A DNA stretch of 64,000 nucleotides, from positions 4,893,812-4,957,811 of the forward strand of contig NC_092675.1 in NCBI RefSeq assembly GCF_964355755.1, in the 5' to 3' direction. Within the stretch, counting starts at the first letter, position 1; every line of letters starts with the position of its first letter. This document shows positions 18,918 through 61,342 of this stretch, piece by piece. The DNA is from Antedon mediterranea. Its lineage: Eukaryota > Animalia > Echinodermata. Made by a program: the position numbers and the translations under genes. The notes beneath the pieces were generated by a model, which was given only the letters and a program-made list of their open reading frames with translations, was not told the DNA's origin and made no database searches.

Positions 18918-20291
18918 TCAATTTCCATTATCAGTATGTATTTCATCTTTGTTTTGTGTATTTTCGTTATTATTATTTAAACTTTCTGTAGATTTATGGA
19001 ACGCTTCCTCACCATGAGTTACAATTAGATAACCAGTGTCATCTTCACTAATAGCAATACTTGAGCATAGCGTCTCGGTACTTTTCATGCTCCACTCCTC
19101 AATAGTTGTATAATTATGCTCACTTCCATCTTCACTAAGCGTAGGCGATATATTGTGATAAATATCTGAGTCCTCATCGTCCGAATCAACACATAGTGAG
19201 AGATAATAATTAGGCTTAGCAGGGAGTTCAAATAATTCTTTTATGTCAGCGTACATATTATCTGAATCATCACTAGTATCACTGGTTTGGGAAGATACAT
19301 CTTCAATATGATGGTATAACCCCTCATCCTGCTTCTTCTCATCGTCATCATCTTCCGACAGTTCATCTATGGTGGAATACCCACATTCATCTGTTTCTGA
19401 TATTCCAGATTCGTTGTTTACTTCATCTTCTTCACTAGTTGCAACAGTGTCATCAGTAGGCGTATTTGCTCCTTCTTCCAATTGTTCAATTGTCTGCTTT
19501 GACTTCATGTCATGGACATTTTGTTCAGTAACGTTGACATTTATTTCGCTATCATCGTTCACCTGCCCATCATTTGTATTTTCTACCATTATTTCAGTAA
19601 GACATAGACCTGTAAATAATTATAATTTGTCATCATTATATCATATTCATAAGGTAAATGTAATATCATTTGGCAAATAAAATTGTGACCAGGATAGCCC
19701 CCAAAAACCAATTACTCAGAGCATTTCCATGGTAACATGAATTTCTGGGCCGAGTAAGTTGTTTCGTATTATTTAATCAACCAAAAAACTGGCAATTCTT
19801 ATATTTAACATTGTCATATAATCAATAGGTACATATTACTTGAAATGACCTGCATTCAAATGGTTTTAAATAAAACTGAAAGTTATATTTTTTTAGTTTA
19901 AAGTTTAGAATACATACTGTACTGCATGCTTAAATAGGCCTATCTAGGATATTAGTGCTTACCGTCGGTTTGATCCGGTAGGTCATCCGACTCATCTTCA
20001 TGCCTAACCGTTTGTTTAATGGTAGTTCGACGAACACAGCATTTAAACACGCCCAATATCACTGAAATTACTGTTGAAATTAGTACCAATATACCAGTAA
20101 ATGTCGCATAATCTGTACGGGAAACAAGGAAGTAAAATAAATATCGTTGTAATCAAACATTACATACGGAAAAGAGAAGTTTTGTTTTAAAATTATAATC
20201 GAAATAAAAAAATAGATTAAAGATACATAGCATGGGATACATTGAACATTATCGACAATAAGGAAATGTTAATTGGCTACCTACCTGACAT
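18918..20291 (-). CDS. Transmembrane-adaptor-like (LAT/PAG-type architecture) single-pass protein, ~282 aa
   Basis: Exons 20291-20285 (ATGTCAG|gtaggt, with an in-frame stop just upstream), 20112-19963 (DYATFTGILVLISTVISVILGVFKCCVRR...QTD|gtaag) and 19609-18918 (GLCLTEI, in frame with the 223-aa acidic ORF). No signal peptide, juxtamembrane CC, seven YxxI/L/V motifs. The first micro-exon is the least certain. Confidence 0.75.
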
Positions 20292-21209
20292 TTTTCAATG
20301 AAGAAAAAGTCATTATAAAATGCATAGGCCTACAGCTACACTTTAACACGTTCTTATGTCCATATTGTATTGTTGATAAAGTGAAATAATCGTTATCACC
20401 AGTTAGACGACATTACCTCTTCCGTTTGAACTGTTGTCTAACAATGACCTCACTTAACTTCCGACGTAGACTTTAAACGACAATTCTTTGAACTAGCACT
20501 ATTATTAAATATTCACTCTTCCCTCCACTGGATCTTCCACTCTTTTGTTGTTGTTTTTTCATGTTTTAGGCATGATCTGAAAGGTCACAATTCGCTGCTA
20601 GTTGCATGTTGCGACCGTCGAGCCAACAGTGAAACCTTGAAAAATACTGAACTACAGGCCTATAATACCTCTCCACATAATACAGTACAAAGTTTAATAA
20701 TCATAACAAAAAAAATCGTTTAGCCTACTTGCGATTTAAATTTCTAGACACTATGCAGTAGCAATTAAGCAATGAAACACATTTCATACACAAAAACCAG
20801 TGATACACACATTGTTATTATTCAATGCCAAAGTTTGTAACACTTTTATATTATGTTAAACTGTTGGACATTATAATTAAAAAATACAACAACATAGCAT
20901 TTATACCTACGGCTTATCATCTAGACACTACTCTAATGACAATTATATAACGAAACATATTTTATACACAGATATATTATTTATACACTGTAGGCCTATT
21001 AGTATTTATTCAACGATTAATTTGACTTAAATTTTAATATTTAACAATTTTATTAGGATGATGACAAAAGCTGTAAACGTCTAACATCTAATATATTACC
21101 ATTATGGACATAAACAAGATTAATAATCAGAATTATATTTTTGATAAGGGCATTATTGATTAATTATCATTATTTGTATTTAATATTAATACAGTACTTT
21201 TATATTATC

Positions 21210-24200
21210 TTAACCCAGAAAGCTCTTAGATGGTATCTCCTTATTTCCCTCAACAGCAACAAGTAGAATCATTTCTTTACTTTCAAGAAGTTTAATGAAA
21301 GCATTAGCCACGTCATCAGTTCTGTAAAAAAAAATCGTTATGTATACATTTTAAAGGAAATATAATACTATATATTAGACTGATGATAAACACAAGGAAA
21401 TAATTATTATATTTGAAATATGATAATACGAACTGAAACATCTTACGATAACTTAGGAGTGGCATCTCGTTTTGCACTGACAAATACTTTTTCACTTTCG
21501 TCGTCAACAACGAAGTCCTCTTTAATAAGCCGTGTAGCAACAAGTGATGGACAAAGAACTTTGATAGTGATTCCATTATCTTTACATTGCACTTGTTCCT
21601 GTTGGACATTAATCATAATATAATATAATTTTATATATTTGAAGCAAACTGATATTGTCACAGACCAGGTTGGATATAAACACGTATATTAAGCATTATC
21701 GGCAACAACATGTTTGTATACGTATCCGGACAACTACCCCCTGGACAATGACCACCTGGACAACTACCACCCGGACAATGACCCCCTAGGACAACTACCA
21801 CCCGGACATTTACCCCCTAGGACAACTATCCTATAGGACAACTACCCAATTAACACAACTCCCACCCGGACAACTACCCCCTAGGACAACTACCCCCTAG
21901 GACCACTACCCCCTAGGACAACTACCCTCTAGGACAACTACCCTCCTAGGATAACTGCTATGCCCCTAGGACAACACCCTCTGAACAACCACACTTATAT
22001 CATGACACCTACACCTTATTAGGTTATAATTACGATCTTGTAAAACTTACTGAACTTCAAAACATAGGGAGAGAGATTGATCTTAAATGAAAGCTTTTGA
22101 ATTTTTTAATATGCGTATCGTCAGCAGTTATTTTACATTAAACGAGAATCGATCAATTATTAAAACGTATTCCAATCTTGAAAAATAAATGGGTGGCTTA
22201 TTTTATTCTTGTGTGACATGAAGATGCCGTATATAAATCTAGGAGCATACAGTTTACCTAGCTGCACCAGTCAATCAAACAGTATTTCATTTGAGATCAA
22301 TCTCTCTCCTTATGTTTTGAAGTTCAGTAAGCTTTACAAGATTGTAATTATAACCTAAGGTGTAGGTGTGGTTGTTCAGAGAGTGTTGTTGTTCTAGAGG
22401 GGTAGCATAGCAGTAAGACTAGAGGGTAGTTGTAAGATAGTGGAGCAGCCCTTTTTATCGATACAATTGGCCCGATTTTGTTCTCTCTTTTCTTTTTCAA
22501 AACAAATGTTTTACCGTAAGAGCTTATTTTATGCTGTTTAATGACATTATACGTTTACTACTACAAGTCCAGTAATAATGGAATATTGGGTTGGCTGTTA
22601 CTACTTCATAGAAGAACTTTAATTAATTTGTTTTTTAAATTTTCTCCCCACTCATGAGAAAATATGACAATAAACGTTTTTAGAACCTAAGAACTTAAAA
22701 AAATAAATATCGCTACAGTTATTACAAATCTTAGGTACGTCGATATTTTAATAATTTCACGTCAAATATTGTTAAATGTATAGTGTGGTACAACGCCCTC
22801 GTAGTCATCTCTTCACACACAATTTGATTTTACAATACAATTGGCACCAAAAGAAGCAGCTTGTTAATTTGGTTACCAATCGTAATTGTCCAAAGCTGTA
22901 GTTGTTCCTAGTGGGTAGCTAGAGAGTAGTTTTCCTAGGGGGTAATTGTCCTAGGGGGTAGTTGTCCTAGAGGGTAGTTGTCCTAGAGGGTAGTTGACCT
23001 AGGGGGTAGTTGTCCTAGAGGGTAATTGTCCTACGCGGGTAGTTGTCCGGGGGTTAGTTGTCCTAGGGGGTAGTTGTCCTAAGAGGATAGTTGTCCTAGG
23101 TGGTAGTTGTCCTAGGAAGGTGATTGTCCAAGGGGTTATTGTCCGGGTGGTAGTTGTCCGGGTGGTAGTTGTCCAGGGGGTAGTTGTCCTAGACCCGTTT
23201 GTATATCCTTGTCAAAATAGTCGATCGGAACAATTTTTTGGGAGATTTATTCACTCATTAAACTACTTCATTATCATTATTGATATAGTAATTAAAAATA
23301 ATTGTTTCCAATGCATGTATAATTGCGTAACATCATGAAAGAATGAATACTGAAAGTAACATATGAATCATACCTGTAGTGCCACAGAGAAGGAGCGTAT
23401 CCCGTGTTTAGTAGCAGTGTAGGCTGCCATGTAAGGAACACACCTTAAACCTAAAACAGTTTAAATGTTAACATAATATCCGTCGAATACTAATCCTCTA
23501 GTAACTGGTGTGGGTTTGTATGAAAACACGGTAAAACATCCAATGTATTGTATTACCGAATATTAGTATGGATCACACTTGGAATGAAGAAGGTCTGTGA
23601 AGGATTTGTCGTACTATTTAGGCTAGGCCTATACTCACTTGCAACCGACGACATATTGACAACAGTTCCACCGTTTCCACCATTCCTAGTTCCCATCATA
23701 TCAATTGCTAGGTAAGTTCCATGCATCACACCTTTCTACAAACAAAAATGATTTTAGTCAGTTCAAGTTGTCTTAGGCTTGGTTCCCACTAGAGACGCAA
23801 CGCAAGGACGTCACGCAACGTTAGTGATTTGACCAATCACAAGCGATGGATTATTCTAACTAGCGCTTGTCATTGGTCAACTCGCTTGCGTCTACGTTCT
23901 TGCGTTGTGTCCTAATGGGAACCACGCTTTAGGGAGCATGACAGCTGATTAGTTTGTTGATCAAGGTGAGAGGGATGGACGGGGAGAAGGTTGAGGGGAT
24001 AATGTTGAACATTTTGGAAAGAATGATTTGGAAAGTTGATAATTGTTATTACTCACCAGGTTTACGTCTATCATGAGAGACCAATTAACCTCATTGACAA
24101 TACCTGCATTATTACAGACAATATCCAGTGTGCCAAAATGTGCCTTAGCCTGTTGAAATGCTTCTGTACAAGAAAAATATTTATTTTTCTGGTTATTGAA

Positions 24201-35700: not shown

Positions 35701-35942
35701 GTGGAATATCAGTCTGTGGTTCTTCGAGATCATCTGCTCTGTATGAAATCCGTGGTTTGGAATATGATTACGCCTATACAAGCAATAACCATGTATTTAG
35801 AAGTCCTTTTAATCAACAATACATTGGAAACGTCCAAGAACCGTCATATGATTATGCGTACGCGACATCGAAATGGGTGAAGAAAACGAAGAAAAATAGA
35901 CCAAGAAAAAAACGAGTCCACCATTTACATGGTGATATATGA
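26797..35942 (+). CDS. Receptor R1: type I membrane protein with C-type-lectin-like domain, mucin stalk and Tyr-motif tail (~523 aa)
   Basis: Exons 26797-26894 (signal peptide MRWFRVLCTLLLVQHCNA), 29426-29565 (CGFTCEAF...TCYI...REC), 31096-31443 (HCYMF...LCRRASGGIAKI...E...C...C...ILCE), 32593-33013 (P/T-rich stalk, TM IVTGIFFVGTIVMVGFALLIGCFF-RRR) and 35378-35942 (YEEV, YSVI, YQN, YDYAY twice). All GT-AG, and phases 2/1/1/2 join in frame. Confidence 0.8.
28409..28480 (-). repeat. Degenerate tRNA-derived sequence
   Basis: Minus strand reads ttgctcagtcggta (A-box-like)...gggttctgatccc (B-box-like). The stems are broken. Confidence 0.4.
34601..34813. mobile_element. Palindromic MITE (Harbinger-like) in the last R1 intron
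   Basis: Long imperfect IR gtaagcggaaaaccatgtagcttgttccac / gtggaacaagctacgcggttttccgcttac extending to both ends. Confidence 0.7.
35090..35219 (+). mobile_element. Mini-HINE (DINE-1-like)
   Basis: ttttagtcgcgtgcaacgcgact 5' palindrome, (gtcg)n microsatellite, subTIR cacgcggct, 3' gccatgtatatcgccttgtt. Confidence 0.7.
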
Positions 35943-36664: not shown

Positions 36665-39600
36665 ATGAGTATAAGTATGTAAGTATACTTGATTATTATA
36701 TAGATTATCTATTATTATAATATAAACTACACAGACAGGACATTCTGGCAAAGTATGGTTTTAGTCTTATACGACGAAGCAGCAACAGCAACAACCACTT
36801 ATGCTTGGTTGTGGATATAGCAAGCACACAATAACGGTAACAATAAAAGGAAATGGACGATAGGCCTGAATCAAATGGGGGCCTTGCTTGCTGGAATAAA
36901 ACAAGTGAACCGTCTTTTCTGTTCTAAATTGCGGCAGAAACAGATCGTTGCTCATCGCCTAGACTTCAGCATTAGTTTCAAAATAGAATTGAATAACAGT
37001 TTAGAGTTATAGTGTTCTGTGTTTTATAAAAAAAGCAAATAATTAATTGAATGTTACTTCTCTAGAATAAATATTGTTGAAGGCCTATTCAACTCGGCTC
37101 GTTGGATAAAACAAATCATTGTCATGTTACTGTCTTACTTTTCTTACATAACTTTCCGACTTCTTTCAACACACACATCCTGGTAATAGGCATACACCCA
37201 GCACTACAGCTGTCCCGGGCAAAGAGTCGAATGATAGTATACACGATTGGGTAGGCATCCTTGGAATTGTAATTGCATTGTCTGTAGCCTTAGCTGCCCT
37301 TTACGCTGCAATAAAAAAGAGGTTGGATAAAAGGTATAGTAGTATTTTTACACTATTCACCGTTGATTAACACGATCGCAATTATCACATAACGTCTAAG
37401 TTCTTTGTAACTTGCTATAGTGTGTAGTTTGGTTTCCATATGAAGACAGCGCAATGCCACGCACGTAAATTAATCAATCATGACGCGATAGATCATCTGA
37501 ACTCTCACTTGTGATTGGTTAAGTCACTTGGGCGGCACGACGTGCGTTGCGTCCTAGTGTAAACTAAGCTTATACACCATGTGCAGCTTTTTAGCGTAGT
37601 CAAACGATAGAAGCATGTCGTGAATGAGTTAGAGAGGCATTATTTCTATTTCGACAATAGTCCATTTTTTGTTTTTTTTTATAAAAAAAATTAGGTTTAA
37701 ATGATTACCTAAAACATACGTTTGCGCGTATTAACGTTTAATTTGCTAGTTGTTTTGATATGGAGCTTTCCAATTGCGACAACCAAATGACCAACGTTGA
37801 TAATTTATTGTGTGCAACCGGAGATATTGGGACGTGTTTTCTCACTTCCCACTCAGACACTGGTTTCTAGGTTTGATGATTTCTAGGTCCGGGCGGTGAT
37901 TTTTTTTCCTACATAAGACCTCATGTGAAAGATAGCCGAACTACTCTTCCTAAATATAACTAAACCTAACCCTCTAAATAATCTCTCTCTCACTATAAAG
38001 TAAATGTGATTCGAACCCCATACATTGACATGTAAAGTCCATAGTCTAATCCACTAGACTACACAGACGACTCGACAGAAAGCGTTTGCATAAGCGAATT
38101 GTAGTTACCTCAATTCTTACCTTATGCATATGACTAATGCATATTCATGTTTATTTTGTAACGTTTCACGAGGGGTCTCTAACTTATGTACGAAAAGAAA
38201 TATCGCGTCCGGGCGACGACTGGCGACACATTGATTGACCTGTGACCTTAGGTTGGTATTCGGTCGTCCCAAATCGAAAGCTCCCTTAATAATGTTTAAA
38301 ACAATTGTAATTGGTACGATGTTCTTGTATTTACGAACTAGTGATTACAATGACATGGTGATTAATTATGACGAAGAGGAGGAAGTGGATACCGAATATA
38401 AGCATAGCGCAGGTAAAGACAATTAAAAAAAATTTCCATCGATCTTCTGATAATTAATTTCTTTTCCCGAATACTGTGGCCAGCCGCATCCACAAATTAC
38501 GTCAATATTAAAAGACACTATCCTTGCAATAATGCATATTTTACATAACATGCAGTTTGTAAATTAGATAAAACAAATTCTAGAGATAGGATTACAGAGG
38601 AGACTTATTATATAAACTATGGGAAAATGTTTCCCTTAGCTAGACCCATTTACACTAGGGCGATAACGATCGACGATAAAAAGATAAATATGCATTTTTC
38701 ATACTTAAAACAAAAGAATTTTAAAAAAGTTTTCATGCTAGAACTATAGGATTATCATCTAGGCCTATGCATCTATAATATTTCCACACGTCCAATCAAA
38801 TGACGTCATGATTAGTAAGAGCAATAATATCGTTACAAAACAACGATTTTATTGTTTTATTAATCATGACGTCATTTGATTGGATTTTCAAAAAATATTA
38901 TCTTTATCAAATACAGTATACATGATTATTTTATAGTTCTAGAACGAAAAACTTTTATAATTTCCTTCGTTTTATTCAAGAAGATAATGTTTATCTATTT
39001 ATCGTCGATCGTTATCGCCCTAGTGTAAATGGGCCTTAACGTCGTTTTTAAATCATTTGACCATGACACTTATTGTTTGTATTTTAAAATGGCGATAGTT
39101 AGGAATGCAATGCTTTTAATCAATATACTAATAATAATAAAAACAAATTTTCTGTTGAATTGAAGAATACACAAATGATTACTCGGACATGTACAAGACA
39201 AACTTTGAGGGAGAATACGTGCATTTAAGCCTCCATGATAATGTGGTTACTATCACCACATCGCCTGCAGGTTAGTATTCGTTTATGTTTTCCTGTCTGA
39301 AAAACCCAAACAATTTGTTTTTGAATGCTCCTTCGATTTACATGAGGCTACATAGGCCTAATATAAATAATAAAATAAATACATTTTATTTTCCTGCTCA
39401 GCTTCAACACGAAGAAAAGGAGTCCTGAAGCACACTTGGGGAACTTTTCATTTCGATAAAATACGGTTGCAAATGTTTATTATTAGTGTTAATTAATAAT
39501 AACTTTCAATTTGTGTTAACATATTGTAAAATAATCACTAATATTTATGTATTTTAAGGTGGGCCTATACGATATACTTGATGGATCAATTTAGATTAAT

Positions 39601-40230
39601 AAAGATGACATAAAAGATGTTTGATGTTTGAATACACCCTCTATAATAGCCAAGAAGCTACAGTGTGATAGAGGGCTTCCAAGTGTTAACACAAAAACAC
39701 TTTTACAAATGACATTTGGTTGACACTACGAGGCCAAACATTATTGTATTATTTCTGTTATTATTTTGTTATTATGTAACACGACGTGGCTATTCCATCA
39801 TCCCACCACCAGCGTACTGAGAATTCTGTATATTTCTCGTTAATTCTACCAATTGATTTTTTACGTAACATTTAAATAATTAGTTAGATAAAATTATAGA
39901 TAGATTAAAACTATCTATCACAGAATGAAAAACGTAATTCACAAATTAGGAGGAAAACTGAAACTTTCTCAAAACAAGGTTTTATATGGTAAAATCATAC
40001 TTCTTCTTTTCTTCGATTTCTTTTGTTTAGTTTCACAAGATTCTGATGGTAAAAAGGGCAAAAAAGGCAAAAAAATTAAAAAATCGTCTGCGGATGTTAC
40101 TACCACACCAAATGAAGAGAACGGTAAAAAATACGAGCCGCCGCCATTTGAGTCTGTATATGAATATGGAGTAGTCAATGCTATTTATGATGATGGGATT
40201 TCTGATATTGGCAGATACACGTACACCTAA
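36665..40230 (+). CDS. Second transmembrane-adaptor-like protein (TRAT1/SIT1-type architecture), ~177 aa
   Basis: Exons 36665-36678 (MSISM|gtaagt), 37190-37333 (HTPSTTAVPGKESNDSIHDW-VGILGIVIALSVALAALYAAI-KKR), 38342-38412 (DYNDMVINYDEEEEVDTEY), 39166-39270 (EYTNDYSDMYKTNFEGEYVHL) and 40031-40230 (YEPP, YEYGVV, YDDG, YTYT*). Phases 2/2/1/1 join in frame. The first exon is uncertain. Confidence 0.7.
37426..37571. mobile_element. Degenerate Harbinger-type MITE, family B
   Basis: agtttggtttccata...cttgtgattggt...gcgttgcgtcctagtgtaaactaagct. Confidence 0.5.
38003..38068 (-). repeat. Degenerate tRNA-like cassette within an inverted-repeat-bounded segment (~37890-38215)
   Basis: Minus strand reads TAGTCTAGTGG (A box)...GGTTCGAATC (B box). 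Flanked by the imperfect IR tacataagacctcatgtgaaa / tttcacgaggggtc..cttatgta. Confidence 0.4.
38642..39036. mobile_element. Harbinger-type palindromic MITE (~395 bp)
   Basis: TIR cccatttacactagggcgataacgatcgacgataaa / tttatcgtcgatcgttatcgccctagtgtaaatggg, plus inner IR tccaatcaaatgacgtcatgatta / taatcatgacgtcatttgattgga. Confidence 0.85.
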
Positions 40231-42409: not shown

Positions 42410-45400
42410 ATGGACATGAGCATATTTTATATCGTATTCATCTCACAAATATTTGTGTTTATCCATAACGTCACATGTAATTTAGTCCCAGATAAGTCAT
42501 TTCCCAATGTGGAACATTTTAGGGAGAAACGCAAACCAGGCGGGCCAGGAGGTGTTAGGTGCGGACCGGGTGAATTAGTCAAACGATGCAAGTAAGATAT
42601 TGTATTTTATTTAAATTCTCTTACATATTCTATAAGGCGAATACAACCAATAAAGCGCAATTCGTTAACAAAATATTATGTATATCTTAAGCCATGTTTC
42701 TAATTGAAAAGAACGTAACAATTAAATTTCGAACCCCAGTTTTAGAAGTATAAGGTCCGGTTGAAGATGCGGTGATAATGATGTAAATGTAGATGTGGGG
42801 GAATAACCTGTGACTTTCAGCCTAACTGGGCTGAATTGCACACATGTATGGACAGCACATACAATAACTTTCTTCCCCCTTAAGTCCATTAAGCTGCTGC
42901 TCGTTCGTCTGTCCACACCGATATGGGATGAATGGACAGTACACCGGGGTAACCCCCTACTCTTCCGAAAGATTAGAGTGCATACGAGTTAGATGTATAC
43001 ACTGGACCTCTAGGTCCTCAGAGAGGACTTGTTATACCACTAGAAAAATGGTACATGGTCGAGGACCTGTTTTAACCAATTGACTCGACGATAGTTCATC
43101 GATCACTGTAAAGTTTAAGAAAAATATTGCCCAAATACACACCATTTATTTTTACCCAGCAACATAATCCTTTAAACATTTCTGGATCATCCTTGAATGT
43201 CTCATTGCACTTTAAAGCAAAGTGAAAAGTTGCAATCTATATACTAAAACGTTAATATTGTTTCCTGCGTGTGTTATTGTCATTCAGTTTCAGTTCTTAA
43301 AACCAAAATGTTGATTTAGCCTTGTAATACCTCCGGGAAACCCTCAGATCAAACATGGTTTTGTTGGGTGGTAAGGGTTGTGGGGGTGGTAAGGGTTGTG
43401 GGGGTGGTAGTGGTTGTTGGTGGGGATAGTTGTTAAATCTAATAGTTAAACATACATTAAACAAAGATTTTTCATGTAGTTTTTAAAAATGTATTCATCA
43501 GTATTCATCATAGAGTGTTGTACAAAATATTTTCATATTTTACTTCACTATGGTTGTTAGAAAGAGGTTTGGAAAGCAATTAAAAAATAATCTGGCTAAG
43601 AAACAAAGTATTGTTTGTATCACTCCAAAGTCATGAATCGGAAATAATAATGATATGCTCAGCCAATCTTTTAAAAGTAATTAAAACAAGCCCTTAGTGT
43701 GTTAATACAGAAACCAATACGGTATTTCAAAACAGATATATTATTATTATTATGTAAAATTAAAATACAATTCAGCTTCAATTCAAAGTAAAATTAATCT
43801 TTCATAACTGAGTAAAAATAACGTATATTTACTCACTCATTCACCACTCCTCACCCCCAAAAAGAAGCAACCCCAAAAATTGTTGTAGGTGTCCAAATGA
43901 GAGAGCGCGCCCCCCATGGATCCCTCTCCTGTCATGTATGTGTGTGTGTACGATGCTAAACCTTACAAAAGGTACCGTGTAAACATAGGCCTACATAAAT
44001 TAAATTCTATTTTTCAGATATGATGTTGATGACAACCAATATTATCGATGGTTGACACTAGGAGAAAGTACGTAAACACTTTTTGCCATCTTTTATACTT
44101 TTATTTACAGCTTACACATATTTTATTTACATTCAATTTATCTTCAATAGATCGCCCGTCATTTGAAGTAAGCATATTCAACTACGACATAACAAAATCG
44201 CAAGCATCTAACAACTGTCCACAAGGCACACGTTTAGCCGTCATCAACGATGCGTGGATACTAGACGAAGCTGTGGCATCGGTATTTGAAAGTTTTGATC
44301 GAGACACGAAATACTGGGTTGATGTTAACGTAGAACTAGACAATATCGATTTCTTTTTAGAGAGAACAGCATGTACTTGCGTTAGTACTGAATTTGCTTT
44401 AAATGGCGAGGAATCCACAGTCATGGAAGTAAAAAGAGATGAATATCAAATTAAGAAAAAGAGGTCGACTGATAAAAGGATGATGAGAGGAGTTATATGT
44501 CAAAAAGAAGGTAGATTTTATATTAAAACTTTACAGTAGGCCTACATATTATTAAGTTGAATCTAAAATATATTTTATGGTTACGTTTTTATAATATATT
44601 ATTTCACAGAGAAAGTTGTTGTTGAGGTTTTCAAATAAATTGGTGGGATCCTGTTATTTCATGTTGCATATTAAAATTAATGTTGCATTTCTTACAGAGG
44701 GAACTACAGCAAAGCCTACTCAATCAACAAAACATACATCAACTTCCTCCAATCCTAGTAGTTCTTCTTCGTTTAGTATGACACCAACGATGAACCAATC
44801 TGTAAGCCTCCCAGTCATGAACCCAACTGCAGAGCCTACATCATCTTTCGATTGGATTATTTTCTTACTTAGCATCATTGCAGTGACGCTATTACTTGGT
44901 TTATTCCTAGGCTGTGTCATTTGCTGTAGAATTAAGTCGCACCAGAAAAATGTAAACCAGTCCGTAGTCTGTGCTGTTGAACCATCTTCAAAAGGTATTA
45001 TTATACACTGTTAATTGGGGCATAGGGTCACCATAAACTAATCTAATGAGAAACCTAAATTTTCATATTCCTTCTTTCAGAATGTGTAGTATCGGTAATT
45101 CCAACAGCACCACCTGCCTATGAATCTAACGACTACCAAGGCCTGATGAGGAATCCTAAAGTTGACAATGTCCACACGAATCCAGATAAGTCTTTCCCAC
45201 AAGAAGGTACCTATATCTACGAAACACCGATGGAAACACCACGTCTATTTCAGCAACCCGCTGGTATTTACAACGGTAGCAGTGGGTATATGGATATTGA
45301 TGGTCCGACTTATAATAATCATCAAAGTACCGATGAATTCGTTTATGATGAGTTAGACACAAATACTACTCCACCAGAATATAGTTATGCATATGCCGAT

Positions 45401-45445
45401 AGAAAGTCTATTGCTGATGAACTACAGAATAAAGTATATCCATAA
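42410..45445 (+). CDS. Receptor R2: type I membrane protein with degenerate C-type-lectin-like domain and Tyr/PPxY tail (~417 aa)
   Basis: Kozak accaccATGG after an acceptor. Exons 42410-42591 (signal peptide, REKR, ...LVKRCK), 44018-44067, 44151-44510 (A..NCPQGTRLAVIND...YWVD...C...GVICQKE), 44698-44994 (S/T stalk, TM WIIFLLSIIAVTLLLGLFLGCVICC) and 45081-45445 (PTAPPAY, YQGL, YETP, YMDI, YDEL, PPEYSYAY). Phases 2/1/1/1. Confidence 0.82.
42870..43060 (-). mobile_element. Partial Deu/Nin-domain SINE
   Basis: Minus strand gaggtccagtgtatacatc...tgcact...tctttcggaagagtagggggttaccccggtgtact matches the core of the copy at 62509. Confidence 0.65.
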
Positions 45446-48123: not shown

Positions 48124-50482
48124 ATGTCACCAATTAAGTACGTTTGTGCAACAATTTACGTATTTGCAATCGTAACAACAAGTCATGAATCACTATTTCA
48201 AAACCAAGAAAGGCTAGCAAACGAAGGAACATTACTTAATAGACAAAAACGAATGGGTGGTGGCAGTTTGATCAAACGATGTTGGTAAGTGTTCCTTTTT
48301 TCATACCGTAAAGAGATTTTTCAAAAATGTTCAAAGGATCCATACGTACACGTAACAAAGATAAATTAGGAATTCATGCAGTGTTTGGCATATAACATCT
48401 ATACACATTTTAGGCCAACTGAATATTTTGAAGTATTATGATGAACTTTAACTATATTAAAATAGCTAAAATTTCTAAAATGAATTTCTGAAAAATTAAA
48501 AGAATCGCCGATATAATGAAAAATGTTATTTTAAAATTAACATTTCAATGTTGGTACTTTACACTAGCTATAACATAATAGTAGTAAAATAAAATAAAAA
48601 TAAAAATAACGTGAAACTTTACCTAAGAGAGACTGTTGTATGTACCTACTCTTGTAACCATTTTTACTATAATTTGTTTTTCAAAGTAAACCTATTTTAG
48701 AGGGATTTCTTCATAATTTTTTCAAAGTTTTACATTAAAATTTACCATAATATTTTTTTATGACAATCGATTCCAATAATTATTATTTCAGGGAGGATGT
48801 AAATCTACAAAATGGTGACCTAACAAGGCAAGACAAATGTATTAAATATACACAGTGTAAGAGTTCATATGAAGTGATTTGTTTATTATACATTTGATTG
48901 TAATATGACACCATGTAAGTCTGCAGTACTGGTACAATTCAATTCATTAATTTATTTTTCAGATGGGTATACATGCTACACTTTTCTACCATCATCAGAA
49001 AATTATGAAAACTATGAAAATGAATGCAATGGCATTGCCGATCAAGGATATGAGCCCGCAAAAATCAACAGCGTCCTCATACTTGACGCCGTCGCTAAAA
49101 TGATACAATACGAAAGAGATGCAGATGAGTATTGGTTGCAGGTCGACCCCACTTTACAGGATGTACCAGATTTTACCGAAGGCTGCTCTGAGTATAACAT
49201 GGACTTTAATGTCATGGACGACGAAAGTACCGTTATAATGATTAAATCAATGGAGTATGAAATAAATAAAAAAAGGCGTAGTCAAGGGAGTCGCGGCTTT
49301 GTATGTCAAAAGTATAGTAAGTGTAGTAATACCAAACTGTCTTCACAGTGAAATCTGTAAAATCATGGATTACAATACTTTTACAGTAACTTACATCAAA
49401 TCAAATTATGTTCACGTACCACGATAGTACCTCATTGGATATTCCATACTATTCAAATGAAATTTAAAAACATACTACAATAAAATGTGATTGTATGATA
49501 AAGCAGTTCTAATTACGTAAATATGCGTCTAGGTTTATATATTTATTTCATTTTGATATAGGGCCGACAACTGAAACGCCTTTTAAACCAACAACTAACA
49601 CACCAATTCGAGAAACTAGTATAGATCGTGACGTAACTGATGATGAACGAGTGACGTCTAAAGCTACTTTGCAGGAGGAGCAAAAAGGTCAAAGCTCATC
49701 TAAAATGTCGGATGCCGTTATTCCAATTTCGATTGCTCTAGGGGTAGCTATCGTCTGCATTGTCATCTTGGTTGTTTTTATATTGTATAGAAGACGGTCA
49801 TCTCAAGAAGGTGTCGCCACTGAATCAGATCAACCAAAGGAACAAAACAATCTAGGTAAACTTTCTTTCTAAATGTCTCTATTGGTACTATCTGAGTTTC
49901 CATTATCTGATACGAAATAATAATAATATAATAATAACAGGCCAATGTTAATACTTTTCACCAATATCACCCATTTTCCACAGATTCATAAAACTCCAAT
50001 AACACATCAATAATTGCCAGTTGCATGCTTTATAGTAGAAAAAATAATAGGCCAATGTTGATACTTTTCACCAATATCACTCATTTTCTACAGATTCACA
50101 AAACTCCAAAAAGAATGAGCCACGCTACACTGAAACAATAAATGGCGGCGATACAAAAGAACCAGACCTTTATTCAAAGTACAGAACTTCTTTACCAGGA
50201 GACTACGCTTATCTCAGTAAAACTGCAACACAAGATCCAGATTCAATTACCGTAGATAATGAGGTTTATTCTGGTGGGCAATACGAATACCCAACACTCC
50301 CAGTACTTGATACTACCAATGCTAAGCCAACTATTGAAGATGATTTAAATGATTCCTCCTACGATAAGCTTGGTCCTTCCTATTATGTTTTAAATCCGAC
50401 AGACGAGAAGAAAGATGATTATATTGAAATAGCTGAAGATCAGGAGTATTCATATCCGTATACTGACGTTGTTCCCAAGTAA
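48124..50482 (+). CDS. Receptor R3: paralog of R2 with ITIM- and ITAM-like tail (~420 aa)
   Basis: Exons 48124-48284 (signal peptide, RQKR, ...LIKRCW), 48792-48856, 48963-49316 (TCYTF...EC...PAKINS.LILD...YWLQV...ESTV...EYEINKKRRS...GFVCQK), 49562-49855 (T-rich stalk, TM VIPISIALGVAIVCIVILVVFILY-RRR) and 50094-50482 (YAYL, YPTL, SSYDKL, YYVL-x9-YIEI, YSYPYTDV). Phases 2/1/1/1. Confidence 0.82.
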
Positions 50483-51672: not shown

Positions 51673-51767
51673 TGTTTTACATACGAAACATGACTGTTTT
51701 ACATACGAAACATGACTGTTTTACATACGAAACATGACTGTTTTACATACGAAAGATGACTGTTTTA
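51673..51767. repeat. 22-bp tandem repeat, ~4 copies
   Basis: Unit tgttttacatacgaaacatgac. Confidence 0.9.
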
Positions 51768-53453: not shown

Positions 53454-56400
53454 CTTGTACACTGGAAAATTAAACCAAGATATAATTTACTTTGCTGCTA
53501 TGAAGGTACTATTAGGCCTACAGATAATGTATACGTTAACATTCATTGTGAAGTTATCAATGAAGAGTTGAATCCACAACCGTTAAAATAGAACGGAAAA
53601 ATAGAACATAGGATTTAAAAAAAATAGATAATAGAAAATCGACTGATAGAACGGTTTTCAATGGGATTGTTATAAAAAAAATACTCTCAGTCCTCGATTA
53701 CATAATATAATACTGGTTCAATCTAAAAAATGAATTGCTATCAGACTATATAATGAAACTGTAATTGGAAATGATTTTAACTACATGCTACTTATACAAC
53801 AAATTTAAAATTAGATAGGCCTACTAGAAAATCCTCAGGTAATCAGATCATCAGATTGCCTTAAAAAAATGAAAAATAACTTACCTACTCTCAAGTTCAC
53901 AGTTACGTGGATATATAGCTAATGAAATCAAAATCCTCTCATACGTTTAAAAGCCTACTAATACATAATATTATTATTATTTTATGATAGTCTATAATAT
54001 TTTACTACTATTTTGTAGTAGTTTTGAAATATGTTTTATGCCATATATCAAGATACGGTACTTTATATTTTTTTATTGGTAAAAACATTTTTTGAACTAA
54101 AGACTGACAATAAACATCTTTTTTTCATAACATCGTTTTTAAGATAATGTTTCACACCATATTTGTTTACTGTTTAAAACATAAAAAAACATGATTATTT
54201 TAAAGGATACGGTAGCCCCGGATTAAAATCGCTTATAAACCTTTGCAACAGCTACTACACTCAGTGCTTAGTATTTAGAGTTACAAAATAAGCAAGGAAT
54301 TATAATCTTTCAAGGAGTTTTGCATCATAATAACACCAAAAGTGTGTAATATAAATGTAATCGCTGCCAACATATAGAGTAGACTTACGTTTTATGCTTG
54401 TTAAATTATACTGTATATCAGCAAGACTTTAAACTCTAAACCACCCAGTGATAATGCTGTAATACAAATAAAATGTGTCGGTACCGGTATAAAAAAAAGT
54501 GAACGACAGCCAAGTTGCATACAATTTTAAGTTTGGTAGTCATCTTTGATTGTCATGTCTTTGATCAGCAAGAGACGAGACAGTGATCATTCCTCTTAAG
54601 CCCAATGAAGAATGGGTGGCAAATGGCCAGGTCCGCTAAAGGCCGAATGGCAACCGGCCAGGAGGAGGCAACGAGAGAAAATTATACATTAACACGGGGC
54701 CTACAATTGGCCTTTTTTTCTTTCTCATCCAAACGTTTCCGGTTTGCGATTCTGTTTCTGCTTTACTTGGTACATTGTAGGCCTACTTTTTACATGTTGT
54801 ACTTTTTATATTAAATTCAAATTAATGCATGTACTATTATATGTTTACTGTTGCCAGCTTATATTAATATTCACCCAGTTGTTTCAAGCTCCATTTATGG
54901 AAAACTGTATTTACAAGGCATTTTATTCATTCTCACATTATTAATACAGTTATATGGCCGTATTAAGAAAACAGCTTTGGGATGTCCCCTTAATCATTGA
55001 CATATTTCCCCTCGTTAGTTTTACAGCAAAAAGTCCCTTGATAGGAGTGTCCAAGCGAGGGGTTCCAATTAAAGCGTAAATGTATCAGCGTTGACTAACA
55101 TGGTATTTGTTTTGAAACATTTAGAAAACGAAACATAAGCTTAATCGAAATAAAATTAAATTAAACTTTTAGGTTCCGTAAATACACAACGTTTCATATT
55201 CCCTGTCTTCCTCTCTTGATGACCTTGATTATTTCAATTTATTTTTTATGACAAATCAAACTTTTTGATATCGAAAATAAAATTTTGATTGAGGTACCAC
55301 ATTTAGGGGTCAGTTTCTATTTTATTCAAGGTCTTTATGTATTTTTAGTGATAGTATTCAGTTCTGGAAAACCCTCCTTTGTCTCATAATCAACCAAGAA
55401 GGTACACATTATAATATTAAAAAGTTAGGTAAACTTTCTTTCCTTACACATGGATTACATTTTAAGATAAGTTAATTCCTTACTGTCACGTAATGCATTA
55501 TCCTGCGCATTAAATTTGCAATAAATGTGAATAACAATTTAATTCATCACTTTGACTAATTATAGGTGATATTTGTGATTTTACTGGCATTTAATTTAAA
55601 AAGACATAAAAACGCAACATGTACGGTATGTCAAATAATGCATGAGGTCGAACAAAAACGTTGACTCCATACTTATCAAGCATAATGTTGAATTGTCTAT
55701 TGTGTTTGAGAATAATTTATATACAGGCATGAAATTACATGACCCACATTATATTCTTTTTTTATGGTATGATGACGTCATCAAAATCAAACTGAAGATG
55801 ACAATTTCGAAAGATAATTGTCAGAACAAAAACTATTAAAATTTGAAGGAATATGGTAAACGTATTTTCTTAACTTATTTATTAATTTCGTTTTCTTTAG
55901 TAGGGTGGCCCTCTCAGTAAAAAAAAATAAACTAAACGTAAACTAAAACTGAAGAATGTTCTTATACAATGTTACTCAATTTGATTTTTTTGTAATGGTC
56001 TCATCTAATAACCGCATGCCAGTACGGTAACTCATGAATAGGCCTATACATACGTGAAACGGTTAATTATTGGTTTATTTATATATTAATAATAAAGGAC
56101 ACGAATAAGGAAAAGAAACACCAGACGGTGGCGAGATGGAATCAGCTTGGGGAGGCCTTCGCCCTGTGTTGATACAACAAGAAACACAAAGTATCTTGCA
56201 ACTTCAAATTATATGTATTTATTATATTAATATGTATGGGTGCTGAATTACGAATATTAATTGTTTAATGTATCAGCTTCAATTTTAGGCAGACCGTTTG
56301 TCACCGTTAGTAGGCCTACAGTAAATATATTACGTAATGTCAATATTATGTCTGTGTCAATTAGTTTAGATTGGCGTCAATAAGAATATTTCAATTTACT

Positions 56401-57232
56401 TTTTAATTTAAGTATAAAAACGACTAAACCTAAATATAATTATTTTGTACAAATTATACTTTCATGTTCAACGCCAAATACTGATCTTTTTGTACAGGTC
56501 AGTTTACCAAGAAACGACTTGTGGTGAAGGTCTATTTCAATCCTGCCGTCAGTCAGTCAATATTGTAGGGCTAACATCCACGCAAGATCTAATTAAGTAT
56601 GGCGAGTCCGAAGGGCACAAACTACTAGCATTGAGTCATTTTGCACTGTAGGAAGACGCAAATTATGACGTCAAAAACTGCAGTCGTCCAAAAGATGTTC
56701 AAATCGTCATAAACTACTGATGTTTCATTTTGTACGTTGAAATGTCCTGAAATGGTTCATGCGAAAGCAACAGAGCAAATTATCAAATAAGGTAAGAATG
56801 TGTTATATTTTCAAATAAAAAATATATCATTTAGATATGAGTTTCAATAGTTAAGAAGATGTATATAATTATTGACAACTTTAAGTACGGTTTTATTTTG
56901 AAAAAAAGAAAATTGTATCATACTTCATACATACAATTCTGACGAATAATGATGAATTGTGTTGTTGTTTAACCGCCCTACTTTGGTAATGGACACAGTT
57001 TTCTTGGTCGTGAATTCATGCAACCATTCGATGCTTTCAAACTAAGTATATGAATCAAGGAGGCAGGCCAACTTGATCTTGTTTGAATAATACAAAATGG
57101 ATGATCTAATGCTATCAAGCAAGGGCTACAGTAGTTCCAATTTTGGTTGTTATTAGGCCTACTTCTTTTTCTCACACATTGTTTCTTATCGTTACGTTTT
57201 CACAGTACTAATTTGATACCATTTTACCAGCT

Positions 57233-57350
57233 TTTTAGTTGCATGCAACGCCACTCTACAGCTCACTATGTCGGTCGGTTAGTTGGTTGGTCGGTCGGTC
57301 GGTAAATATTAACTTAAGCACGCGACTGCAGCCATGTATATGACCTTGTT
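57233..57350 (+). mobile_element. Mini-HINE (DINE-1-like), same family as 35090
   Basis: ttttagttgcatgcaacgccactctacagctcactatgtcggtcgg...cacgcgactgcagccatgtatatgaccttgtt. Confidence 0.7.
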
Positions 57351-58202
57351 CAGTTACGAACTATTCATTTTAATATTATGATATAATAATATATACGTGA
57401 TATAATTAATAATATTAATATAATATAATATTTGTTAAACGGGAGAAAGTATTTCTATAAAAATAAAGCTTCCTATTTATTTAATTCGTGAAATAATTTA
57501 GTATTATAAAACAAAAAATCAATCAAACTATAAAAGTTATTGTATTTTATATATTCTAATTGAATCTTTCAAAAATATCCTTGAAAATAACACTGGAGAT
57601 AAATTGGTTCTGTATGTTTTAAAACCAAATTGACTTGAGCGTGCACAGATAAGAGGAAATAAGATCTAATTATTTTCTGCAGAATTAAGTAGAAGGAAGG
57701 AGATTTGTGGCCCAGAAGTTCAATAATTTGAAACATCCTTTTCCTTCGCAGAATTAGCCCTGACATGAAAAAGAAACGATGAACCATAAATTATTAATTA
57801 TCGAGTATTAGGGGCCTTTTAACGTGCATCAATTCCAGGGTTATCGTATTTAAGAAAGAAAGTATCTATAAATGGGTATAGTTTCTGCCAGCACGAATAT
57901 GAAAGAATTCTAACTTAAAATGTCAATATCAGTCACTATAATTATCTCACTTTCACTTAGGCGAAACATAAAAAAAAAACAACAAAAACGTGACCGATTA
58001 ATAATTATTGATAATAATTAAATCAGTGAAACTCTTATTCGCTCGGTGATGTGGCCAAAAAATACCCAATATAAGCGATTGAAGATGACGGGAATAAATC
58101 GGCGAGATTCAAATTCGGTTCTTCGGCTTTATTAATATAAACCAGTAACAAAAATATTAACATGACGTATAATATAATTGACGATTTACTTTTGTTTTTC
58201 AG

Positions 58203-61200
58203 ATGTATTGGCATAGAATAGTTTTGGTTGTTATTTTCGGCTTATTAATTAAGCGAGTATCATCGTTGGGAGGTCAGGCTGTTAAGTGCACTCCAATTTA
58301 CTCAACTAAACCAAATGCAACGTGTTGGTCAGTATAAGCATTGCTAAACACTCTCAATATGGAATGTCTTTATGCTATGTATACAATAATTTTCGAAAAT
58401 AATCTCATAATAAAGTTTACTATTTAATAATATTCTTAATACATACTGTAATGTAAAATTCTTCTAAAATTAGTATCTAAGGGGTTTCTACGCTTCAGCT
58501 GCATATGCTTACGATATTAACTGATTGTAATGATTAATAATTAAATGATTGTATTCTAATGTTACGTGGTCATTATAAAACGTTCCTTCCTTTCATGTAC
58601 TGTTATTTTATTTTTTCAACTACCACCCAAGGTCTATCTATCTATTTCTAAACAATATTGCATATGACAAGTATTTAGGGACGGAAACATTAATTATTTG
58701 TTTAAACGAGGCCACTGAGGCCTTATTTTTACTTACACAATTAATGTCAGTTATTGTTTTGTCTTTAATAAATGAAAAACATTTTATATTTTTAGGAGGG
58801 AATTTTCAAATTCACCAATGGATGAATGTAGTAAGTATTTTTGTTATTGTTACATATTATAAATAATTCGTGGTGTTATGCAGAGTTATTTGTTTAAAGT
58901 TCTAAATCCTAAACTTCAATCATTTAATATTTAATCTAAACAAATTATGCAATTGTAAAATTTCCATTTCTTTCTCCTTTACTAAACGAGGTATTTGTGC
59001 TATATAATAGGCCTACATGTTAATATCGTAAGCACAATCATTGTTGATGATGTCAATTAAAATTAAATGTATGAGTTGTGATTTAGTATTTTTTTAGATA
59101 TTTATTTTTATTCTACAGGTCACAAATTCTGCTATGATTTGAATGAAGGTACAAACAAATGTTCATCACCATGGAAAAAACCTACAATTCACAGAGAACA
59201 CGAACTAGAACGTATAGCAACTTTGGCCAGAAGCGAATTCGTTACTCAGGCGTCGTGTACAATGAGGCTTAAAGTTAACAAAAACACAAAATCTGGCTTG
59301 CTTTTCTTTAAAAATGATGAAAACTGCCTTGGATTGGAAATGCTAACTTTATCTCAAGACTCGTGCGCTGTGGTTTACTTAAATCGCGCGTTGAGGGGTT
59401 ACTGTATCTGGTATCATAACGAGTGTCCCAAAGTTGCAACAGACGTTACCGTATGCAAAAGAGAAAAATATGTTGGTACAGGTAGGTTATTTTTTTTTAA
59501 ATTTTAAAAACAAGGGCCGGGAAAACAATAAAAGGTATGTGGAGCCATCATACTTTTTACAATCTATTTTGTGTTTTTTATTCTTCAAGAAATACCAACA
59601 AACTCTCCGAGAAAAGCTACAACAGAAGAGCCAATGGATACATCACCAATCAGCATTGAGATTATCATTATCGTAGCAGTTTCTGCTAATTTTCTTATAA
59701 TGATAGTTGTTGCTTTTCTTGTCTCGTTCCTATTGAAACGAGTAAGTTTGAAACAAATATTCTTCTATTTTAATCTATATATATTTGTAATAGAATTCGA
59801 CTGTTTCATGCAATACATTAATTAGATTTCATAAAACAGCTAATATCTAATTTTATATAATTGTAGTATTGTATTTTGTATCAAATTTATACTATATATG
59901 TACCCGGTACATTATATAAATTCACTCAAATTTGTATAAAAAAATAAGATTGTTTTTATAATTTGTGAAAACATTGCCAGTAGGTTTATTATGATACTTT
60001 AAAAGACAAAACCAAATCGAAAACAAATGGTTACAATATACATTTATTAGCATTACTAAACTACATTAATATTTTATTTTTAGTCTAGGATGACAAATGG
60101 TCATAATTCGCTGTCTCGAAACCCATCAAGTGAGTATTTATACATATTCAATTCAGCAGTATTTTAGTATATGACATTATCAAGTTTTAAATTGGAAATA
60201 CAAATAAAACATAGGTTTTCAATGGTTTGTTGAAGATACTAATACAGTTATACATTATTATAAATTATCTGTAGAAGTTTTTGGATGAAAAACTGACATC
60301 AACTTTTTTTGCTGTGACTTACTTTAACATGTCAATGTTTATCAATAACATGATATTACAAGCGGTGAATTATCAATTGCTGAATCTTCATTGTTGAATG
60401 TATTTTTAAAATGCATAATCTTTAATTAATATTATCGTTTTTTAATTCTTATTATTATTCTTATTTATATTATTATTCATAATTTCAGACCGTCCTCTTC
60501 CTAGAGTTCCTAATGAGAAAATTAATCATAGATTTTCAAAAGCTGATAGTGCTGAATTTGATAAATGGAAAGATGAAAGCCACTATATGTACTTAAGTCA
60601 TGAGTCTTTAGACATTCCTCGATACCATAGTATAACCAAGAGTGATATCAGAAAGACATCCGATTATTCTTACCCAGACATGGAGAAAGTTAAACAATCT
60701 TTAGAGGCTACGTCTTCTAAATCAAACTACATGCCTCTCATGAAAGATGGAGGTGAACGAGTCGCAAATGAAGGTAAAGAATTTTCAAAAAATGGAAAAA
60801 ATAGCGAGGTTTCTGTCAAACTACCATGTGTTTCCATAGAGAACGATGGTCAGTCTGGTGACGATGTTGATAACGAAAAAGTGACTCATCACCGAAGTTC
60901 AATAGCATGTTCCGACATAGATGGAGAATACAGTGAGTTAAAACCGGATTATTATGTTCTCGAAGAAAACGATGTGACACATACAGTTACTGCTGAATCT
61001 AAACATGTGGACTGTCCCTCTATTGAAAATAACAAGGATAAACTATCTGATCGTATTGTTGAAAAGTGTGAAGAAAAAACTATTTGTGATCGTACTGTTG
61101 ACAGTTATGAACTGAAATCACTTGACAATCATATCGTTAAAACTTCTGAGCATAAACCCACGAACTATCGTTCTGTTGACACTGATGAAGTTGAACCACA

Positions 61201-61342
61201 TCCACAAAACGACTTGAATCATGATTACTTTCTACTTGAGAAGGACGGTAACGAAACGGAGGAGGTTCCTGAACCTGTTGCACAGGATACTGGCATTCAC
61301 AAGGCTGTTGACAACATAACAGGATCGATACAAAATAGTTAA
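58203..61342 (+). CDS. Receptor R4: type I membrane protein with C-type-lectin-like domain and long ITAM/ITIM/SH3-ligand tail (~524 aa)
   Basis: Exons 58203-58327 (signal peptide MYWHRIVLVVIFGLLIKRVSS...TCW), 58796-58830, 59119-59481 (FCYDL...KC...PTIH.E.E...SCAVV...W...EC...TVCKR), 59590-59741 (stalk, TM IIIIVAVSANFLIMIVVAFLVSFLL-KR), 60084-60129 and 60489-61342 (RPLPRVP, SHYMYL-x9-YHSI, SNYMPL, YSEL, YYVL, YRSV, YFLL). Phases 2/1/1/0/1. Confidence 0.8.

Follow-up and report, generated by a model that had tools for sequence, protein, structure and literature searches.

A candidate recognition-and-signalling locus in the crinoid Antedon mediterranea: predicted CTLD-like type I receptors with tyrosine-rich tails beside a LAT/PAG-like adaptor gene

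Introduction

Does a group of uncharacterized genes in the crinoid Antedon mediterranea encode a recognition-and-signalling module, in which lectin-like receptors act through tail tyrosines together with a membrane adaptor? The question arises from a 64,000-nt stretch of contig NC_092675.1 (positions 4,893,812-4,957,811), AT-rich with a GC content of about 0.30-0.38, which we call the window and to which all coordinates below refer. A sequence-only reading had proposed that it holds six spliced genes, namely four co-oriented type I receptors with C-type-lectin-like domains (CTLDs), here R1-R4, and two transmembrane (TM) adaptor-like genes, A1 and A2. A 2026 review (PMC13027682) points to a gap in what is known of how echinoderm lectins signal inside the cell.

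With moderate confidence, we propose that four old crinoid CTLD-like type I paralogs and the LAT/PAG-type A1 form such a module. The tails of R1-R4 are likely non-catalytic with conserved tyrosines, and their ectodomains likely do not bind sugars. An immune or self/non-self role of the cluster is plausible.

Gene structures of the receptors and adaptor-like genes

Searches with single exons led to RefSeq proteins of Antedon mediterranea described as 'uncharacterized', at 100% identity. The assembled exon models of R1 (523 aa), R2 (417 aa), R3 (420 aa) and A1 (282 aa) are identical to RefSeq proteins, and that of R4 equals its RefSeq protein minus an 11-residue N-terminal extension encoded by an upstream exon. 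The features are as follows.

18918..20291, minus strand: A1, 282 aa; exons 20291-20285, 20112-19963, 19609-18918; identical to RefSeq XP_071952617
26797..35942, plus strand: R1, type I CTLD-like receptor, 523 aa; exons 26797-26894, 29426-29565, 31096-31443, 32593-33013, 35378-35942; identical to XP_071953577
31096..31443, plus strand: R1 exon 3, predicted CTLD-like core, phase 1-1
36665..40230, plus strand: A2, unconfirmed, from sequence only; TM exon 37190 or 37210-37333; tyrosine-rich exons 38342-38412, 39166-39270, 40031-40230
42410..45445, plus strand: R2, type I CTLD-like receptor, 417 aa; exons 42410-42591, 44018-44067, 44151-44510, 44698-44994, 45081-45445; identical to XP_071953300
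44151..44510, plus strand: R2 exon 3, predicted CTLD-like core, homologous to R3 exon 3
48124..50482, plus strand: R3, type I CTLD-like receptor, 420 aa; exons 48124-48284, 48792-48856, 48963-49316, 49562-49855, 50094-50482; identical to XP_071952652
48963..49316, plus strand: R3 exon 3, predicted CTLD-like core, with deep allelic divergence
56759..61342, plus strand: R4, type I CTLD-like receptor; 524 aa from the ATG at 58203, 535 aa in RefSeq (XP_071953573; ATG 56759, upstream exon)
58203-58327, 58796-58830, 59119-59481, 59590-59741, 60084-60129, 60489-61342, plus strand: exons of R4
60130..60488, plus strand: R4 intron 5, retained in the listed contig of sequencing run X1

R1-R4 all lie on the plus strand, with starts at 26797, 42410, 48124 and 58203, and every intron is GT-AG. 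Exons 1-3 have the phases 0-2, 2-1 and 1-1 in all four, the phase-2 end of exon 1 adjoining a Cys. In the order R1, R2, R3 and R4, exon 2 (phase 2-to-1) measures 140, 50, 65 and 35 nt and exon 3 (phase 1-1) 348, 360, 354 and 363 nt; a stalk-and-TM exon and one or more tail exons follow. The type I layout, namely a hydrophobic N-terminus, an ectodomain, a TM segment followed by basic residues and a C-terminal tail, was read from the sequence itself rather than with a signal-peptide predictor. Models, GT-AG introns and RefSeq identity thus bear out the four co-oriented genes with a common exon and phase layout.

When contigs of run X1 were compared with the window, they omitted introns by exact exon lengths across exons 3-4-5 of R2 and of R4, and agreed within a 3-nt in-frame difference across exons 3-4-5 of R3. 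Because its contigs skip introns, we treat X1 as RNA, no run being recorded as RNA and the tissue of X1 being unrecorded. Junctions were taken from the coordinates of contig pieces, since reads of a repeat at ~46-47.5 kb dominated the joint tables. R2-R4 are therefore supported by RefSeq and by spliced contigs, R1 by RefSeq, and A1 by RefSeq and an ortholog. As to the six spliced genes originally proposed, R1-R4 and A1 stand, whereas for A2 as a separate gene a search of 514 candidates with its last exon found no protein record. An R1 exon at 34520, of the kind included in the first models, is unneeded: exon 4 joins 35378 in frame and the product equals the RefSeq protein. Before the last exon of R3 a short local duplication (49940-50010, 50049-50120) creates two near-identical acceptor sites, of which RefSeq uses the second.

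The predicted ectodomain fold

Weak but concordant lines lead us to predict a CTLD fold for the ectodomains of R1-R4, R2 being included by its homology to R3. In the Atlas, 26/30 matches of R3 exon 3 fall in Lectin_C clusters (score 0.94), as do 28/30 feature matches of R1 residues 19-200 (score 0.91), for which CD302 is the top structure row (TM-score 0.49). A relative of R3 from the crinoid Anneissia japonica (P0010) aligns with the Pfam Lectin_C profile over 6-106/107 at E 4.7e-4, with 21.3 bits that lie below the cut-off of 22.6. An AlphaFold2 model of R4 exon 3 (predicted local distance difference test, pLDDT, 74) was compared with 48,161 chains, of which 33 reached a Z of at least 5, nearly all of them CTLDs by title; the best match is tetranectin (Z 6.8, root-mean-square deviation 3.9, 102 aligned). 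These results support the claim of type I receptors with a CTLD-like ectodomain.

The third exons of R1-R4 align colinearly. Those of R2 and R3 are clearly homologous (BLASTP E 2e-16; 0/1000 shuffles reach the score), the R1/R4 alignment is marginal (8/1000 shuffles), and the remaining four pairs are at chance (154-665/1000), which confirms the early observation that the ectodomains are barely alignable except for R2/R3. HHalign placed R2/R3 and R4 in register (E 0.0027), and its comparisons of R1 with the other families were not significant. Against PDB sequences, phmmer searches with R4 and R1 exon 3 returned chance rows only, the R2/R3 profile reached CTLD rows only at E 0.26-1.4, and the R4 profile found nothing. 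The 1453 open reading frames (ORFs) of the window yielded no CTLD exon beyond these four. A tree of the ectodomains was uninformative for R1 and R4 because of long branches.

Calcium-dependent sugar-binding C-type lectins are marked by EPN/QPD, WND and a WIGL core. R1-R4 contain no EPN, QPD, WND or WIGL motif, and Ca2+-dependent sugar binding by them is therefore unlikely. One WND does occur in an Anneissia R3, but outside the domain: it precedes it, where exons 1 and 2 would meet.

Cytoplasmic tails

The receptor tails carry 12-15 tyrosines, and in R3, R4 and A1 the motif YxxI/L/V/M is more frequent than in shuffled sequences (6 vs 2.1, 8 vs 2.2 and 7 vs 1.4, respectively). The sequence-only reading had named beforehand the conservation of tail tyrosines in orthologs as a point on which it could fail. 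Pooled, 33/47 tyrosines are retained in the Anneissia orthologs, against 319/800 other residues (p 4e-5) and against 22/48 F/W/C/H residues (p 0.014), and 18/24 YxxL/I/V/M motifs persist. Most of this signal comes from A1 (8/8) and R4 (10/12), in both of which residues at most four positions from a tyrosine are 65-66% conserved, compared with 31-33% farther off.

The description of these tails as ITAM/ITIM tails (immunoreceptor tyrosine-based activation and inhibition motifs) was overstated, as strict motifs are few. The ITAM Yxx[LI]x6-8Yxx[LI] occurs in 0/9 proteins. A looser definition, Yxx[LI]x6-9Yxx[LI], is used for Alr in PMC9546547; by it R3 (YxxL-x9-YxxI) and R4 have one each, at spacing 9 (shuffle p 0.04 and 0.015). 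Strict matches to it are found in 0/4 Anneissia orthologs, that of R4 having V at the last place. A1 has pairs of the YxxI/L type at x11-12. ITIM matches ([ILVS]xYxx[ILV]) number two in R4 (SxYxxL), both kept in Anneissia, and one each in R2 and R3, neither kept; in the Antedon tails they do not exceed shuffles (p 0.10-0.37). Two further recurrent motifs were noticed post hoc, so that their p-values are illustrative only: each of the four Antedon receptor tails has a [DE]Y[SDEA]Y[APL], and A1, R3 and R4 share PxYY[LV].

The Anneissia R3 tail has two NPxY motifs. At the end of the tail of the Anneissia R3 ortholog P0014, a 15-residue unit containing a YxxL is repeated in tandem about four times, an internal repeat expansion that has multiplied its tyrosine motifs; Antedon R3 lacks these units.

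A1 and the unconfirmed A2

A1 consists of an ectodomain of ~4 residues without a signal peptide, one TM segment, a juxtamembrane CC and an acidic tail with 8 tyrosines; its last exon is 27% D+E. The Anneissia ortholog, which keeps all eight of these tyrosines, has the same build of few-residue ectodomain, TM segment and long tail, with CxC at the end of the TM segment. This is the build of a LAT/PAG-type transmembrane adaptor protein (TRAP) rather than one of the DAP12 type. Adaptors of the DAP12/FcR-gamma/CD3zeta type have an acidic TM residue that pairs with a basic residue in the receptor TM, plus an ITAM. The TM cores of A1, R1-R4 and their orthologs contain no D, E, K or R, so DAP12-style coupling to a separate adaptor finds no support. 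YxN is the Grb2-type site. A1 resembles LAT, NTAL, PAG and LIME, as described in PMC4861716, in its short ectodomain, single TM, juxtamembrane Cys and multi-tyrosine tail; unlike them, it comes from an invertebrate and has no conserved YxN site, and the likeness is one of architecture. Homology between the tails of A1 and R4 is unsupported.

The A2 model joins a good TM exon to three tyrosine-rich exons that stay in frame and are bounded by GT-AG, giving a 131-residue tail with 13 tyrosines (10%). Its start at 36665 is a guess, the guessed 14-nt first exon lying ~700 bases past the R1 stop, and a second possible acceptor of its TM exon, at 37210, is phase-compatible with R1 exon 3. A2 may thus be a second adaptor or an alternative TM and tail of R1. 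Its last exon matches no protein record among the 514 candidates searched, the juxtamembrane Cys is absent, the TM core has no D/E/K/R, and the tail has no ITAM at x6-12 and no enrichment of YxxI/L/V/M (4 vs 2.1 shuffled). Thus, between the two adaptor-like genes proposed, A1 is backed by RefSeq, an ortholog and its TRAP build, whereas A2 is unverified.

Orthologs and range of the family

Searched against 1.84 billion representatives, the R2/R3 exon 3 profile gave five matches at E<=0.001, all from Antedon (2 clusters) or Anneissia (3), as expected of the lineage-specific family that had been proposed. Anneissia japonica has orthologs of R2, R3 (two records), R4 and A1. Among 335 candidates no R1 ortholog was found, which is weak evidence, and the R1/R4 profile picked out three proteins. 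Identity to the Anneissia ortholog over exon 3 is 65/120 for R2, 41/118 for R3 and 87/121 (72%) for R4.

With few matches and near-1:1 orthologs, the family therefore appears to be small and old, interrupted by other genes and not a fast-expanding array. The idea of a rapidly diverging, expanded family is not supported, given the conservation of R4, this orthology and the finding of only two R2/R3-type clusters in Antedon. The Anneissia R3 and R4 orthologs are likely linked, since their locus numbers are near-adjacent on records of equal length (377,623). In Antedon A1 is separated from R1 by a short-chain dehydrogenase, and R3 from R4 by a rhodopsin-type G-protein-coupled receptor (GPCR); the proposed six-gene cluster is thus co-located but not contiguous.

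Allelic variation and isoforms

Polymorphism was assessed in two samples. R3 exon 3 in X1 differs from the window by 17 substitutions in 340 letters (5%) and 12 gap letters, in contrast to 40/5830 (0.7%) in the other seven listed X1 pieces (p 5e-9, a post hoc contrast). R2 exon 3 shows 0/358 and R4 exon 3 3/361 differences in X1 (pooled 3/719), so that high variability of an ectodomain exon is seen in R3 and not in R2 or R4. Among the 13 of the 17 R3 differences that are listed (40 of 375 table rows being listed), 11 change an amino acid; at nonsynonymous sites the listed changes come to about 0.038 per site, at synonymous sites to about 0.031. All 13 recur in run X2 of the second sample. There, one R3 site stands at 144/295 depth and the total depth equals that of the flanking bins; thus, the differences are taken to be alleles rather than a hidden paralog. 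The divergence of R3 exon 3 fits balancing selection or weak constraint. In the stalk, TM and tail exons of R2 (44698-45445), all seven listed coding differences in X1 change an amino acid, and R2 exon 3 has none.

A RefSeq isoform of R2 (isoform X2, XP_071953301) uses an acceptor at 44911 and is without the stalk and most of the TM segment. In R4, intron 5 is unspliced in the listed X1 contig (piece 60084-61700 unbroken); read-through meets a stop after 13 more residues, and the exon with the tyrosine motifs is lost. This contig could be unspliced RNA.

Comparison with known systems

Like the crinoid locus, the natural killer (NK) gene complex and the Dectin-1 cluster bring together CTLD receptors without classical sugar sites, which signal through tyrosine motifs, as is proposed here. 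Those receptors have type II topology, and TM charge couples many of them to DAP12/FcR-gamma. The crinoid receptors differ in being type I, in having neither TM charge nor a canonical ITAM and in forming a small, old family.

The oyster CgCLec-TM1 and CgCLec-HTM, transmembrane C-type lectins reported to signal through Syk in haemocytes, are, like the crinoid receptors, invertebrate lectin-type TM proteins with a tail tyrosine motif; the source (PMC13027682) gives them carbohydrate-recognition domains that bind lipopolysaccharide or bacteria, and one hemITAM. By comparison, the crinoid proteins are too diverged to match Pfam Lectin_C, have no sugar motifs, carry 12-15 tail tyrosines and are clustered beside a TRAP-like gene. 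CD302/DCL-1 (group XV) is described in PMC2702671 as type I, with a single CTLD without Ca2+-binding residues, a spacer, a TM segment and a tail tyrosine, all as here, and with one putative internalisation motif in place of a long multi-tyrosine tail. Searches with the R2/R3 profile (1.84 billion representatives; PDB sequences) revealed no homology to CD302 at the sequence level.

Botryllus fester/FcoR (PMC11507803) and Hydractinia Alr (PMC9546547) are likewise type I receptors encoded in invertebrate gene clusters, and their tyrosine motifs are of the ITIM/ITAM-like and core kinds. They have TM-deleting and intron-retaining splice forms and allelic polymorphism, to which the R2 isoform, the listed R4 contig and the R3 alleles correspond here. 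They are tied to mapped allorecognition and comprise >37 fester loci, about 53 FcoR loci (PMC11507803) and 41 Ig-fold Alr genes (PMC9546547), whereas Antedon, a solitary animal, has four CTLD genes here, of which R3 alone was seen to vary strongly between alleles. On the features tested, the crinoid genes belong to none of the oyster, CD302, FcoR and Alr families, but likely work like them.

In titles and abstract openings we found no such echinoderm locus or invertebrate LAT-type adaptor, and nothing on a crinoid C-type lectin with an ITAM or on CLec-HTM with Syk in invertebrates.

A proposed mechanism and its alternatives

In the module that we favour, the ectodomain would recognize a ligand, such as a protein, without the help of calcium, on a microbe or a second cell, and the resulting clustering would let a Src-family kinase phosphorylate the acid-flanked tail tyrosines. 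SH2 proteins, such as a Syk/Shark-type kinase, an SHP-type phosphatase, Csk or Crk/Nck-type adaptors, would then be recruited by the receptor tails themselves. A1, whose juxtamembrane Cys are probably palmitoylated, would serve as a downstream scaffold, not as a charge-paired partner, and the TM-less R2 and tail-less R4 isoforms may tune the output. If this module exists, its setting in coelomocyte immunity or self/non-self recognition is about evenly balanced against other settings; in that setting, the likeliest, R3 would be the variable, specificity-bearing member. We regard as unlikely the bolder version, an echinoderm self/non-self complex that reached the NK design independently, with mixed activating and inhibitory tails, ancient balanced polymorphism of R3, decoy splice forms and a linked LAT/PAG-like scaffold.

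Several results weigh against the module. Each line of fold evidence is weak by itself: Pfam Lectin_C matches neither the exon 3 (0/4) nor the full protein (0/4) of any of R1-R4, and the Atlas scores of 0.91-0.94 rest on 137-157 shared features, fewer than the 170 typical of same-family matches. Among the structure checks that had been suggested, the AlphaFold2 model of R4 is CTLD-like, but its best Z is below 8 and the alignment behind it included CTLD-like paralogs; the R3/R2 model, from a two-sequence alignment, reached a pLDDT of 32, and Foldseek returned nothing at E<=0.001, its top ranks being CTLDs. A profile built without R1 did not recover the R1 exon among the 1453 window ORFs, and the common descent of R1 therefore rests on exon phases and tail motifs. 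The claim that the tails are dense in YxxI/L/V/M holds for R3, R4 and A1, whereas R1 (2 vs 2.4 shuffled), R2 (3 vs 2.0) and A2 are not enriched and are merely tyrosine-rich (7.5 and 8.4% in the R1 and R2 tails). Moreover, tyrosine conservation is not significant alone in R2 (8/12, p 0.13) or R3 (7/15, p 0.24), YxxPhi motifs also serve endocytosis, and in Anneissia the orthologs of R2 and A1 are on records different from that of R3 and R4, so that linkage of A1 to the receptors is seen in Antedon only.

There are three competing accounts. The receptors might be CD302/layilin-like adhesion or endocytic proteins, their tail tyrosines being sorting or cytoskeleton signals, with roles in development, regeneration, nerve or skeleton-forming cells instead of immunity and with A1 as an unrelated neighbour. 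The architecture is that of CD302 in PMC2702671, CD302 is the top Atlas structure row for R1, the Anneissia R3 tail has its two NPxY motifs, and a 72% conserved R4 ectodomain with near-1:1 orthology is unlike arms-race genes. Yet 12-15 tail tyrosines, with a conserved island round each in R4, contrast with the one putative motif of CD302 in that source; PxYY[LV] in A1, R3 and R4, though post hoc, hints at a shared partner; and the R3 ectodomain alleles are deeply diverged. We hold this account to be rather doubtful, though the likeliest of the three.

A role in gamete or conspecific cell recognition, in which the CTLDs bind ligands on the partner cell, R3 is a compatibility locus and the tails feed Src-family signalling, appears quite improbable to us. 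It would suit the high amino-acid polymorphism confined to the R3 ectodomain and the low ortholog identity there (41/118); CTLDs are present in echinoderm sperm receptors, and SH2 signalling through Src and PLC-gamma drives echinoderm egg activation. Nevertheless, transcripts of R2, R3 and R4 occur together in a single RNA-like run whose tissue is not on record, with no pointer to gonad specificity, and R4 is well conserved between families. We give as little credence to a chance neighbourhood, in which R2 and R3 are tandem paralogs, R1, R4, A1 and A2 have nothing to do with one another in origin or role and the variation of R3 reflects relaxed constraint. In its favour, 4/6 comparisons between third exons score no higher than shuffled sequence, the array is broken by a dehydrogenase and a GPCR, and the R3 rates of 0.038 nonsynonymous vs 0.031 synonymous changes per site are compatible with neutrality. 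Chance would have to account for the identical phase pattern 0-2, 2-1, 1-1 in R1-R4, independent CTLD calls for R1, R3 and R4, a tail motif common to all four Antedon receptors ([DE]Y[SDEA]Y[APL], post hoc) and the linkage of the R3 and R4 orthologs in Anneissia; and relaxed constraint alone would not lift total divergence sevenfold above that of pieces that contain untranslated regions.

Neighbouring genes

The multi-exon short-chain dehydrogenase (Pfam adh_short; about 21240-26201, minus strand), which we take to be 15-hydroxyprostaglandin-dehydrogenase-like, stands head to head with R1, and as their ATGs are ~600 bases apart the two may share a promoter. Inside it lie two short-repeat arrays of opposite orientation (about 21700-22400 and 22900-23200) that by eye resemble the ends of an inverted-repeat element. 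A high-copy repeat between R2 and R3 (about 45985-47550) has a DNA-run depth thousands of times that of its flanks. The other neighbours are these.

52488-53486, minus strand: rhodopsin-type GPCR, intronless ORF; Pfam 7tm_1 E 2e-36; covered by X1 contigs; divergent from R4
15313-17475, plus strand: TRIM-NHL gene, single ORF of 720 aa, with RING, B-box, coiled region, filamin-like and NHL repeats; adjoins A1
3182-4231, minus strand: second rhodopsin-type GPCR, its frame split by a stop near 3875-3877 into ORFs 3878-4231 and 3182-3874 of the same frame; may be a pseudogene, an allele or an assembly error
402-632 and 6033-6401, minus strand: a hydrophobic coding segment present twice, the copies nearly identical and ~5.7 kb apart, the second without a Pfam match; likely a tandem duplication of a membrane-protein gene
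about 8100-10400, minus strand: S-adenosylmethionine-dependent methyltransferase-like exons, with a glycine-rich motif in 9852-10085 and a weak Pfam match (E 0.14)

Biological implications

The locus supplies named, conserved and testable candidates for lectin signalling in crinoids. An invertebrate LAT/PAG-like membrane scaffold is of a type without report in the literature searched, and if A1 is indeed a transmembrane adaptor, the layout of receptor, kinase and membrane scaffold known from vertebrate leukocytes would be present, or would have been re-invented, in a non-chordate deuterostome. If the deep alleles of R3 are balanced, R3 would be a candidate specificity locus for allorecognition or pathogen recognition in echinoderms.

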